NCBI GenBank assembly: GCA_964016885.1
Contig: OZ024756.1
Location: forward strand, 20,336,001 to 20,400,000
DNA: 64,000 nucleotides
From: Eledone cirrhosa
Lineage: Eukaryota
Reading direction: 5' to 3'
Part shown: positions 18,640 through 48,149 of the stretch, one piece after another
How positions within the stretch are numbered: the first letter of the stretch is position 1
How the letters are laid out: each line of letters starts with the position of its first letter
Position numbers and translations under genes: made by a program
The notes under the pieces: model-generated
Database searches by the model: none
What the model was told of the DNA's origin: nothing
Seen by the model: the letters and a program-made list of their open reading frames with translations, nothing else

Positions 18640-18935
18640 CTAAGGCGGGTAAAATTCCCGAGATCCATGGACGAGTTCTCTCCAGCGGTCTCTGTCCCTC
18701 ATTATTGCTGCCATGCCCTGCGTCTCCAACAGACCAGTGTCTGTCCTTAGGGCATCAACATACGTTAACCTTGGTCTTCCTCTTCTAGTGTGTCCATGTA
18801 GGGACTCCCAAAGGAGCACTGAGTGCAATGTCAACTCTGGATGTCGGTGAGCATGTCCAGCTAACCTCAGTCTCCTCTGTGTCACTTTTGAGCTGACTTT
18901 TGGGATGCTCCCGTACAGCTCTGAGTTTTTCATCC
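18640..18935 (-). mobile_element. RTE-type LINE 3' ORF fragment
   Basis: NSELYGSIPKVSSKVTQRRLRLAGHAHRH...LLW...GRPRLTYVDALRTDTG...MRDRDRWR. Confidence 0.85.
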
Positions 18936-19007
18936 TCAGTGTATACTGATTAATGTTTATGAGATATATATCTATATATGTGTGTGTGTGTGAGTGTGTG
19001 TGTGCTG

Positions 19008-19045
<38 letters not shown>

Positions 19046-19047
19046 TG

Positions 19048-19080
<33 letters not shown>

Positions 19081-19368
19081 CGTGTGCGTGTGTGTGTGCA
19101 TGTGTGTGTGTTGAGATATATATATATGTGTGTGTGTTGATAGATATATGTGTGTGTGAGTGAGTGTATGTGTGCTGATTGTGTGTTGATATATATATAT
19201 ATATATGTGTGTGTGTTTATATATATGTGTGTGTGTGTTTATATATATATATATGTGTGTGTGTTTATATATATGTGTGTGTGTGTTTATATATATATAT
19301 ATGTGTGTGTGTGTTTATATATATATATATGTGTGTGTATGTGTGCATGTGTGTGTTTATATATATAT

Positions 19369-30700: not shown

Positions 30701-30789
30701 ATGCGGCATCCATATATTTCTCTCTCTAGATATATATATATATATATTATATATATATATAATATATATATTTATTATTTTTCAAGAAA

Positions 30790-31045
30790 TCAATCGACAA
30801 GATCCCAGACCTCATTTGCTTACCGACTGGAGTGAGACTTGTCAAATCGGACCAAGGAAAGATTGTTTCCGTGGGTCTTCTTATTGCTGATACTATCTAC
30901 CAGTCACAACTCCTGACAACGTGAAATAAAATATCTTGCTCAAGAACGAGAACATTAGGCATCACCCGGTCCGGGAACCGGAAATCGAACTCACAACCTC
31001 ACGATTGCCATTTCCAATCCAATTCTCTAACCACTAAGTCACTCG
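30790..31045 (-). mobile_element. tRNA-derived CORE-like SINE
   Basis: Minus strand: gtgacttagtggttagag (A box), gagttcgatttcc (B box), cttgagcaagata. Homologues at 49760-49897, 49988-50278 and 57125-57210. Confidence 0.65.
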
Positions 31046-31481
31046 TCTTCACACACACTTAATGATATATATATATATATATATATATACAGATATCCAC
31101 GGTAAGTTGTGGGGTCTATTCTGCATGAAGAACCCAATGTAATCCATATGTTGAAAATGCTGTAGGTTAAAAGGTTGTATTATTATTATTATCATCACCT
31201 AGAAACGATCAGTGAAGTATATCTCTAATGACTTTATTTTTTATTTCATTGTTTTAACGTATATATATATATACACACACACAAATATATATATATATAT
31301 GTTTGTGTATATATATAAATATATACAAACATATATGTATAGCAATTTTCTGCTCCTCCTAACTATATATATTAGACTCGTCCAAATTGTAACAATAAAC
31401 TGTTCTACCAGATGAGATGATATAAAAATCTAATGATTAACTGTAGCAGAAGACATCAGTTGCTAATACGTTTGAGTTAAC

Positions 31482-32657
31482 ATGGCTGAGAAAGACCCAC
31501 GTCGTGGATTATGGAAGAAGTACAAATCCCGAAATCCCCAAAAGAATTCAATTACGATTGAGGTACCTTTGGATCTACTTGATGCTGTTTTATCGTCTCT
31601 ACTAGAAATACTTCTTAACTCGAGGTCTGAAGGTAAACGCATCTCAGCTGAAAATGCCGGCGGCTCAAAATCCTTGAAAAGAGTTACTGTTCAGAAGAAA
31701 ATGCACCCCACTGATTTTGCCTACGTTGTCATTGCTAACCAAGATCTATCTAATCATCTACGAAACATTGCCAACGAGTTTAAGGGTCACTTCGGCATGG
31801 GAAGAGCTATTACTGAAGATGATATATATCTAAACTTTTTCCATTACGTTAAATGCGATGAGGAAAAAATCTTGCACGTTTGGGAAACTTGGAAAATTAA
31901 AGTGATCCTAAATTCTGAAAAGACTTATACGGAAATTGAAAGAAACTTAAGAGCGGCATCGTTGTATATCTACGATCTCCAGTTGCCGCCACTTCCAAAT
32001 AATCTGTCACTTGATCTCTGTAAAAATATCTTTCAAACTGAATATAGTGAGGCTTGGCCGTACCGACATTTCATTCGACAAGCGAGCAACAAACCTTCTT
32101 GTCACGCCCTCTCTATCACTGTGAATATTGATAACATGCGTACAATTTTAAACATCATCTTTGAGTCAATATTGTGTACACGGTGTGTACCCACGTTGAT
32201 ACGTTCGGGAAATGACGACTATAAATATGGTTCTAAAACAACTAGTAAAGAATACGCCCCTGTCTTTGACATTTCCTACGACAGAATAATTTGTCCTGAT
32301 CTAATAGCGATACTTCAGAAACATGCCAGCGCCTGTCAAACGTTTGTACAATTACAGAAACACTTACCAGAAAATGTCAACATTTTCGTAAGTTTTTATC
32401 ATCTACATGAGACAAAACGTGAAAGTTGGAGTCGAAAAATCACTGAGAGATGGCAGATTAAATGTACACTTGCAACAGTGGATAATACTACAACTGATGT
32501 CAAAAAGCAACTCGAGGAAGTGTTTAGTTATATTAACAAAGCTAAATTTCCAAATTCACTAAGAGTTTCTCCATGTCTTAAATATGACGGGTTGCCTAAA
32601 TATTTCTTCACAAAATTTGAATACTGCACACCGTATCTGTTTTATGTTCATTTTTAG
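31482..32657 (+). CDS. Intronless 391-aa protein with two tandem divergent ATG101-like HORMA domains
   Basis: Only long, non-repetitive, full-complexity ORF in the window, with AACATGG start context and downstream AATAAA (32977, 33175). Motifs LLNSRSEGK, DFAYVVIANQDLSNHLRNIANEFK, WETWKIKV and LPPLP...IFQT...WPYRH match human ATG101 as recalled (LLHRSTGK, DFTYVRVSSEELDRALRKVVGEFK, WEVWTVKV, LPKMP...VFDT...QPYLY). The second half repeats the pattern (SITVNID, ILCTR, DISYDRI, ERWQIKC, TPYLFYVHF). Confidence 0.8.
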   Translation: MAEKDPRRGLWKKYKSRNPQKNSITIEVPLDLLDAVLSSLLEILLNSRSEGKRISAENAGGSKSLKRVTVQKKMHPTDFAYVVIANQDLSNHLRNIANEFKGHFGMGRAITEDDIYLNFFHYVKCDEEKILHVWETWKIKVILNSEKTYTEIERNLRAASLYIYDLQLPPLPNNLSLDLCKNIFQTEYSEAWPYRHFIRQASNKPSCHALSITVNIDNMRTILNIIFESILCTRCVPTLIRSGNDDYKYGSKTTSKEYAPVFDISYDRIICPDLIAILQKHASACQTFVQLQKHLPENVNIFVSFYHLHETKRESWSRKITERWQIKCTLATVDNTTTDVKKQLEEVFSYINKAKFPNSLRVSPCLKYDGLPKYFFTKFEYCTPYLFYVHF

Positions 32658-33037
32658 CAGTATTCTTAAGCGAAACACTTTTTTTTTTTTTTTAAAGTAC
32701 AGAAGAAATTATATATTTTAAAATGCAGAAGAAACATATATTTTAAAGTGCGGAAGGAATTATATATTTTAAAATGCAGTAGAAATAATATATTTTAAAA
32801 TGCGGATGAAATGATATATTTTAATCCATTTTGAAGTTATACTTTATCTAAATGTATTGTTTCTTTATCTCGTAAATATTTTTAAATATCTCCTTTTTTT
32901 TTTTTTTTTTTTTTTTTAAACCATTTTACATCTGAATAATGTAGTTGCCGGAGTGGCACAAATGGAGATAATTTAAAATAAATTCCTTTTTAGTTCTAAA
33001 TGTTACTTATTCTTCTTCAGGTATAGTTTATCAATCG

Positions 33038-33081
<44 letters not shown>

Positions 33082-33358
33082 CGAGTTTTCTTTAAATCTA
33101 TAATACAAAAAAACTTTAAAGTGTTCTAAAATCTTGATAAAGAAGCTGCATTTCATAACTCTAATTATTTTGAAAATAAATGCTTTTAAAATTTTCCAAC
33201 GTTAATAAAAATGGCAATCGTTATATATTTCTGTTATATATATATATATATATATATTTCTATATATATATATATTTCTATATATATATATATTTCTATA
33301 TATATATATATTTCTATTTTATATATATATACTTCTATTTTATATATATATATACTTC

Positions 33359-47488: not shown

Positions 47489-48149
47489 GGGATACACACA
47501 TATTTATATATATGTACCGATTGTGTTGTTATTTCTGTTTACCTTTTACTTACACGCACGCATGCACGCATACACACACACACACACACACACACATGAC
47601 ATCTACAGGGCTAAAACTGTTTCATTCATATGAAATATTTAGACATTCCTGATGATTTCATATGAATGAAACAGTTCTAGTCTTATAGAAGTCATTTCTA
47701 TATATAATAAAGATGCCTATACTCTACCAATGTAGTTAGTATTTTTTTGGTTATAGTTACCCCCAACACAACTCATAAATCTACAACATACACACATATA
47801 TATATATATATTTATATATATATATATGGTGGCTGCCAACTCGTTTTCGAGTAGGACCACTACTTTATATCCATGTAGGAGAACCACTACCGATGCGCTG
47901 AATGAGTGTGACTTTTTAGTCCAGCCAGAGACTTGAAAACTCTGGTACAAACACTACACTTGTGACAATTATTGACACATAGTGCTGGGCCCATGGTACC
48001 ATGTGATGATAAGTGCAGAGAGATCTCCAGATATAAAGCAATGCCTGTGCCGTGAAGCTTTTATAGTGAGCAAAGGCACACATACATACATACATACATA
48101 CATACATACATACATACATACATACATACATACATACATACATACATAC

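Follow-up and report, generated by a model that had tools for sequence, protein, structure and literature searches.

A single-exon gene of Eledone cirrhosa encodes a tandem double ATG101-like HORMA protein

Introduction

Within the autophagy-initiation complex, ATG101 is regarded as a subunit with a single domain, and dimers of open and closed HORMA domains usually pair one open with one closed domain. HORMA domains are described as dimerising through helix C and the β2-β3 hairpin (PMC4657174), and human ATG101 is reported to form a transient homodimer through the helix C/β2-β3 surface, which speeds ATG13 binding (10.1101/2025.06.27.661946); a Drosophila Atg101 homodimer is likewise cited (PMC4034400). 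Whether ATG101 homodimerises or changes fold to time autophagy is disputed, with the preprint on the human homodimer arguing in favour and a review treating the idea as speculative (PMC12275124).

Two parts of human ATG101, the WF finger and the C-terminal helix, are described as its membrane-binding parts (PMC13544240). When its WF finger is mutated, human ATG101 remains able to bind and stabilise ATG13 but no longer recruits downstream factors (PMC4824606). Such mutants are reported to bind ATG9A as well; in the same source Y45 is given as a contact of the ATG9A tail that is needed for ATG9A binding (10.1101/2022.07.12.499634).

In this work we analyse a gene in a window (the whole stretch of DNA under study) of 64,000 nucleotides from Eledone cirrhosa. 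With 391 aa and two HORMA domains, against one domain and about 218 aa in canonical ATG101, its product differs in size and domain count from the described subunit. ATG101 is represented by Pfam PF07855, the human structures PDB 5C50, 4WZG, 5XUY/5XV1 and 8DO8, and the S. pombe structure 4YK8.

Results

The gene occupies window positions 31482..32657 on the + strand. Its frame opens with the ATG at 31482 (A at -3, G at +4) and runs for 391 codons without an internal stop to the TAG at 32655-32657, which agrees with the original prediction of an intact, single-exon ORF of 391 aa. Among 60 ATG-initiated ORFs of at least 100 aa it is the only one of complex sequence; the window is microsatellite-rich, in a genome of 3.0 Gb. 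A single contig from sequencing run X1 covers 31341-32654 with no differences from the assembly, and since this run is possibly the assembly's own sample, the match is a check against assembly error rather than independent support.

Scanning 255 of the 267 complex stop-to-stop frames of at least 45 aa in the window against Pfam gave no neighbour at the curated cut-off, the 12 omitted frames being those that overlap the gene or consist largely of simple repeats. Below the cut-off, a weak single C2H2 zinc-finger match was seen at 47890-48060 (-) (19.7 bits, cut-off 25.2). A short frame at 18640-19101 (-), which we take to resemble the C-terminal end of a LINE ORF2, had no Pfam match. On the 5' side of the gene, high-copy repeats at 30776-31433 stop about 50-100 bases short of the ATG, with a summed contig depth in run X1 of about 700 to 42,000, compared with 2.7 over the ORF, so that the promoter would be either repeat-derived or located beyond a 5' intron; possible AG acceptors are present directly upstream of the ATG. 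On the 3' side, a unit repeated four times at a spacing of about 26 nt lies just past the stop codon (32683-32811), and the region 32977-33209 then holds hexamers of the AATAAA/ATTAAA type at three sites (about 32977, 33175 and 33204).

ATG101 is the only Pfam family matched by the 391-aa protein, and PF07855 aligns to it in two stretches (45.3 bits, E 1.1e-11, cut-off 26.5). When the halves were scanned separately, half 2 exceeded the cut-off (27.0 bits) and half 1 stayed below it (22.6 bits, E 1e-4); half 1 did find human ATG101 chains in the PDB by phmmer (E 0.0072), and 3 of 3 other doubled proteins scanned against PF07855 scored above the cut-off. The internal repeat is visible to profiles only, since direct comparison of the two halves was empty both by BLASTP (E 8.5) and by blastn (best E 0.14), whereas hhalign joined them over 177 columns with a score of 86 (E 3e-13); when the columns were shuffled 100 times the score averaged 13 and never exceeded 24, and the reversed control gave 14. 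An ATG13 HORMA profile aligned to the halves by hhalign scored 16.5 and 10.2, inside the shuffled range (maximum 24). The ESM Atlas placed the whole protein and half 1 with ATG101 clusters at 0.87-0.89, values that, being below 0.9, serve as leads only.

Predicted structures point the same way. Half 1, modelled from 13 rows (pLDDT 86.8, pTM 0.84), matches human ATG101 residues 1-197 with Z 21.2 and an rmsd of 2.5 over 184 aligned residues, in a model whose alignment included canonical ATG101 rows and which is hence not independent of the ATG101 fold. The full-length AlphaFold2 model (5 rows) is of low confidence (pLDDT 52.5, pTM 0.41, junction below 50) and therefore uninformative on the packing of the two domains; its half 2, built on the doubles alone, matches human ATG101 1-192 with Z 14.9 and an rmsd of 3.7 over 168 aligned residues. 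The next-best structural matches were Mad2 (Z 11.1 for half 2, 11.4 for half 1) and Rev7 (about 10). ATG13 was absent from the best 50 structural matches of each half, to which we give no weight as evidence. The two ATG101-like halves of the original prediction are thus borne out by Pfam, hhalign and predicted folds, with limits (approximately 17-203 and 203/204-391) close to the proposed aa 20-198 and 207-391, and we regard both as confirmed, at the level of profile and model, to be ATG101-type open HORMA domains, neither of them ATG13-like.

Preceding domain 1 is an N-terminal extension, aa 1-16 (31482..31529, +), which is poorly conserved and modelled with low confidence; mean pair identity among doubles over aa 1-19 is 0.20. 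Domain 1, an ATG101-type open HORMA domain by its predicted fold, comprises aa 17-203 (31530..32090, +). The end of its helix A, aa 45-53 (31614..31640, +), is the most conserved element among the doubles, with a mean pair identity of 0.75 for aa 48-55, and includes Asn46. This residue is invariant in doubles and aligns with human L30, a column that holds a hydrophobic dimer-surface residue in canonical ATG101. The domain junction, aa 200-206 (32079..32099, +), takes the place of ATG101's C-terminal helix: about 5 residues lead from the last strand of domain 1 to the first strand of domain 2, gap-free in 4 of 4 doubles. Domain 2, likewise predicted to be an ATG101-type open HORMA domain, spans aa 204-391 (32091..32654, +) and stops directly after its last strand, again with the C-terminal helix absent. 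In the column alignment its Tyr247 (32220..32222, +) corresponds to human Y45, a tyrosine occupying that column in the second domain of 4 of 4 doubles and in the first domain of 1 of 4.

Both membrane-binding parts of the canonical protein are missing. The WF finger, a W-x-F in the β4-β5 loop, was seen in every canonical row (5 of 5) and in 0 of 8 halves of doubles. The loop of domain 1 (31842..31874, +) is shortened, with an identity among doubles of 0.07, and that of domain 2 (32400..32438, +) is of near-normal length; they read FFHYVKCDEEK and KRESWS as had been described, with no W-x-F in either. W316, the tryptophan of the domain 2 loop, occurs in 0 of 3 other doubles and is for that reason not a kept remnant. 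Each half ends, as originally noted, in a P-Y strand. Beyond the tyrosine of this strand half 2 has 6 more residues, where the complete canonical rows (4 of 4) have 29-30, and half 1 runs directly into half 2 without the helix. Since the modelled halves match human 1-197 and 1-192, the repeat unit is ATG101 minus its approximately 20 last residues, joined head to tail. Besides the terminal P-Y strand, the retained marks of ATG101 are the R-x-x-G-K motif (half 1), the F-Y/F of β4 and the E-x-W of β5.

Searching the genome with PF07855 gave at least 4 matches among 9 scored candidates, in at least 3 loci; our genome searches score only the best candidates, so that such counts are lower bounds. 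A canonical ATG101, which the original prediction had supposed to exist separately from this paralogue, lies on contig C11 at 33.741-33.747 Mb (+; L006/L007), with 7 coding exons, GT-AG junctions, 190 stop-free codons and a W-L-F finger, and is 57% identical to a mammalian ATG101. About 0.6 kb further on there is a candidate last exon of 27 codons with a good acceptor, ranked 3 of 948 by score. To this canonical protein the halves of the window protein are 16-22% identical. A further intronless paralogue of 211 aa has a single domain (L002:1459-2094, +, at about 37.055 Mb on contig C17); it scores 57.2 bits against Pfam, is 24% identical to the canonical protein, has a short tail and no WF finger, and is separated by 16.7 Mb from the window gene, which shares its contig. 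Its relatives amounted to 3 hits among 930 candidates, at 58% and 35% identity, with the third losing similarity midway.

The search for ATG13 gave, as a lower bound, 1 credible locus of 2 matches, a large exon at L010:1288-1863 (-) (contig C3, about 232.11 Mb), whose identity to O. vulgaris (99%), O. bimaculoides (98%) and Argonauta (94%) serves below as a yardstick of rate. A co-duplicated ATG13 paralogue was considered and rejected: the first match is the ATG13 exon and the second a GIY-YIG-bearing ORF. This false candidate, L011:1549-2802 (+), is an open frame of 417 aa with a weak GIY-YIG match (20.1 bits, below the cut-off) and is probably a retroelement ORF. Z-linkage of the window gene was also rejected, on one marker only: Amnionless, reported to be Z-linked in O. 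vulgaris (10.1101/2024.12.09.627507), has its exons here on contig C28 (L015-L017, about 56.35-56.39 Mb), and the window gene is on C17. If the O. vulgaris linkage of Amnionless is conserved, C28 would be part of the Z chromosome.

The doubled architecture recurs in other proteins. Full-length doubles were found in O. vulgaris (CAI9737456.1, 49.6% identical to the window protein) and Argonauta hians (GAB1603255.1, 38.9%), and two near-identical Logan proteins are further full-length doubles at 41%. Of 1,683 candidates in a word-indexed protein search, 2 proteins were returned; a profile search covering 1.84 billion representatives gave 9 hits at E ≤0.001, of which 2 were full-length doubles and the remainder single-domain ATG101s. 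In both protein searches the doubles that carry a species name are from octopods only. Neither search contained a double of O. bimaculoides or O. sinensis, for which loss and missing annotation are both possible; the ATG13 of O. bimaculoides did turn up in the ATG13 comparison. A search of JGI metagenome contigs for a related locus gave 107 pattern matches, none of them confirmed. Database entries for relatives of the window protein are named hypothetical or, automatically, ATG101, and we found no description of a tandem double ATG101 in the literature searched; subscription papers and the supplementary gene tables of cephalopod genomes, which could list one, were outside its scope. The architecture is a real, conserved and apparently undescribed form of a core autophagy protein.

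The window double is extremely diverged. At 49.6% identity to the O. vulgaris double and 38.9% to that of Argonauta, as against 99% and 94% for the ATG13 exon, it shows the fast evolution that had been proposed for it. The split between Argonauta and Octopus is given a fossil lower bound of about 29 Ma (PMC12682272). The reading frame is nevertheless clearly maintained: it is open in 4 of 4 compared doubles (34-62% identity), with indels in frame and matching C-terminal ends, and stop-free frames arose in 0 of 500 neutral simulations at 70% identity and likewise in 0 of 500 at 50%, while core strands are conserved at 0.65-0.67 in contrast to 0.07 for the lost finger of domain 1. Invariant columns overlap significantly with those of canonical ATG101 in half 1 (odds ratio 2.8, p 0.013) but not in half 2 (p 0.15). 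Judged by mean BLOSUM score, substitutions relative to O. vulgaris (-0.47) are just a little milder than in the neutral case (-0.67 +/- 0.12), and helix C identity among doubles is 0.40 and 0.34 in the two halves.

In a four-row tree the window gene pairs with Argonauta, and O. vulgaris falls with the Logan protein (100/99 and 99/98). This suggests two old lineages of doubles that differ in loss or annotation, long-branch attraction being possible. With regard to rate only, it is a serious possibility, short of probable, that the window gene is instead a true orthologue of the O. vulgaris protein, the two having diverged under extreme positive selection. A search of the genome with the O. vulgaris double found at least one match, the window gene, among 9 scored candidates, so that, as a lower bound, one double is found; O. 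vulgaris is also nearest by raw identity, and the Argonauta branch is flagged as long. Against orthology stand the tree itself, the AU test, which rejects pairing the window gene with O. vulgaris under two models (p 0.0055 and 0.009), and four-row site patterns of 19:8:3.

Concerning its origin, the window gene was probably retroposed, as originally proposed: it is intronless and lies on C17, whereas the canonical parent, with at least 7 coding exons and thus at least 6 coding introns, is on C11. An intronless copy of a multi-exon parent and a location away from that parent are features of a retrogene; the flanks hold no poly(A) remnant or target-site duplication, whose survival at such an age is not expected. 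With regard to transcription, a run search that covered 3 runs of 1 study listed no RNA run carrying the gene. Internal duplication would then likely have followed retroposition. We favour duplication over fusion on three comparisons of the halves. First, half 1 is closer by hhalign to half 2 (86) than to the canonical protein (64) or the single-domain paralogue (56); second, the helix-C region is shortened in common, to 56-61 residues in 8 of 8 halves, compared with 66-69 in 8 other rows; and third, a tree joins the two halves (support 89/94, split not starred). That the gene instead arose by fusing two independent ATG101 paralogues, with domain 2 taken from the single-domain intronless family, is unlikely in our estimation, given that the helix-C shortening is seen in 0 of 3 singles and that the best tree joins the halves, but the idea draws on the hhalign score of half 2 against the single-domain family (89, as high as against half 1), on a clade of half 2 with the single paralogue that the AU test keeps (p 0.235) and on the presence of both intronless genes on contig C17.

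Discussion

Our best explanation, which we advance tentatively, is that the protein is a self-paired HORMA pseudo-dimer that acts elsewhere than in membrane-anchored autophagy initiation. The multi-exon ATG101 would have given rise to a processed copy, which then doubled internally, and selection would have retained the folded protein. The linker of about 5 residues would hold the halves, which would pack together and co-evolve, such that the dimer surfaces would be used in cis and drift from the ATG13-binding signature. The product might then have become a scaffold that binds new partner proteins, probably confined to one tissue, for instance the germline, a step that we take by analogy with the Drosophila Atg8b retrogene only.

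Several features speak for a pseudo-dimer: a very short linker that is free of gaps in all doubles, the absence of both membrane anchors, and the invariant Asn of half 1 at the human L30 column, within the most conserved element. The dimer residues are called L29/H30 in the homodimer preprint (10.1101/2025.06.27.661946); L-L-H occupies 29-31 of the 218-aa mammalian row. The change of half 1 at L30/H31 is weak evidence, because these columns vary even among canonical rows. The drift of helix C (0.34-0.40) despite a near-invariant ATG13 is more in keeping with co-evolution in cis than with a surface that ATG13 keeps in place. On the other side, a linker so short may or may not permit the canonical face-to-face dimer, and half 2 keeps the Y45-equivalent tyrosine in 4 of 4 doubles together with mostly hydrophobic L30/H31 columns, which would fit retained binding of ATG13/ATG9. 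Further counterpoints are the invariant-column overlap of half 2 (p 0.15) and substitutions barely milder than neutral.

This retained signature leads to the main alternative, which we consider somewhat unlikely: one of the halves, domain 2 most likely, would still bind ATG13 through its HORMA domain as well as the ATG9 tail, and the protein would act as a membrane-blind decoy that stabilises ATG13 and dampens initiation by competing with canonical ATG101. The human WF-finger mutants provide a precedent, as they bind and stabilise ATG13 and fail in downstream recruitment (PMC4824606) and are reported to keep ATG9A binding (10.1101/2022.07.12.499634); domain 2 has the Y45-equivalent tyrosine in every double compared, and one credible ATG13 locus (1 of 2 matches, a lower bound) was found for four ATG101-type domains. 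However, a partner conserved at 94-99% should fix the surface that it binds, yet helix C varies freely (0.34-0.40). Moreover, domain 1 directly precedes the N-terminus of domain 2, and a steric block is plausible since the human ATG101 N-terminus is reported to adjoin the ATG13/ATG9A groove (10.1101/2022.07.12.499634).

Returning to the self-paired protein, a bolder form of the idea, which we consider decidedly improbable as it stands, is that in octopods the transient ATG101 homodimer has become hard-wired as a single chain, amid a hidden expansion of the family (one genome having three or more ATG101 genes with four domains, perhaps with two ancient doubled lineages) that faces a single, nearly invariant ATG13, and that the chain would act as a switch, template or brake on ULK-complex assembly. 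Less probable still is a bivalent activator, whose halves would join edge to edge and leave both dimer surfaces free, so as to template the activation of canonical ATG101, to associate with the single-domain paralogue or to connect two molecules of ATG13. The start site of ATG101's metamorphic C-terminal strand/helix is indeed where domain 2 has its first strand, the helix A end of domain 1 is the most conserved element, and ATG101 dimers are reported to activate other ATG101 auto-catalytically (10.1101/2025.06.27.661946). These points are countered by an identity of only 16-22% to the canonical ATG101 of the genome, by the loss of the converting C-terminal element from both halves, and by a review in which HORMA fold switching in autophagy is called speculative (PMC12275124). 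Finally, it is highly improbable that the gene is a decaying or relaxed retrocopy, now functionless in this species, for although its divergence (49.6% to O. vulgaris vs 99% for ATG13), the near-neutral chemical severity of its changes and the lack of O. bimaculoides and O. sinensis doubles in both protein searches, despite the O. bimaculoides ATG13 found in the ATG13 comparison, could be read in that way, 4 of 4 doubles have an open frame with a matching C-terminal end and in-frame indels, none of 500 neutral runs stayed stop-free even at 70% identity, and core strands (0.65-0.67) far exceed the lost finger (0.07) in conservation.

A natural, selected and covalent ATG101 pair without either membrane anchor is a ready reagent for the dispute over homodimers and fold change. 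Its structure would reveal whether, and how, two ATG101 folds pack, and, should the hard-wired homodimer be true, would expose an ATG101-ATG101 interface that has so far been only a cross-link-guided model; a pull-down would show whether such a unit engages ATG13 or ATG9. The window gene is further a sign that, in octopods, a core autophagy gene has undergone an expansion that is lineage-specific and fast-diverging. Should the protein have left autophagy, it would be an unusual tandem-HORMA neofunctionalisation, mainly of comparative interest. Its significance is limited by the narrow taxonomic range of the doubles, and the role proposed here is putative.

Compared with known systems, the window protein is most like canonical ATG101, each half having its open-HORMA profile and predicted fold (Z 21.2 and 14.9), and is unlike it in being two-domain and intronless, with a shortened helix C and neither W-x-F finger nor C-terminal helix. 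As the single domain, WF finger and C-terminal helix of the canonical subunit are missing, we class it as a derived paralogue. It resembles the reported transient ATG101 homodimer (10.1101/2025.06.27.661946) in placing two ATG101 HORMA domains side by side, but here the two are parts of one covalent chain, are alike at only about 21%, lack the C-terminal element that is said to convert and have a putative interface. As a HORMA pair it also recalls ATG101-ATG13, O-Mad2/C-Mad2 and Rev7-Rev7, Mad2 and Rev7 being its next-best structural matches; those open-closed dimers are formed by separate chains, whereas the halves here are both ATG101-like and neither is ATG13-like by profile. Finally, Drosophila Atg8b is likewise described as having no introns and as a probable retroposed copy of a core autophagy gene, alongside a parent that has introns (PMC7615515), but it belongs to another family and has a single domain, and for Atg8b the same source reports testis expression and a non-autophagic role in fertility.
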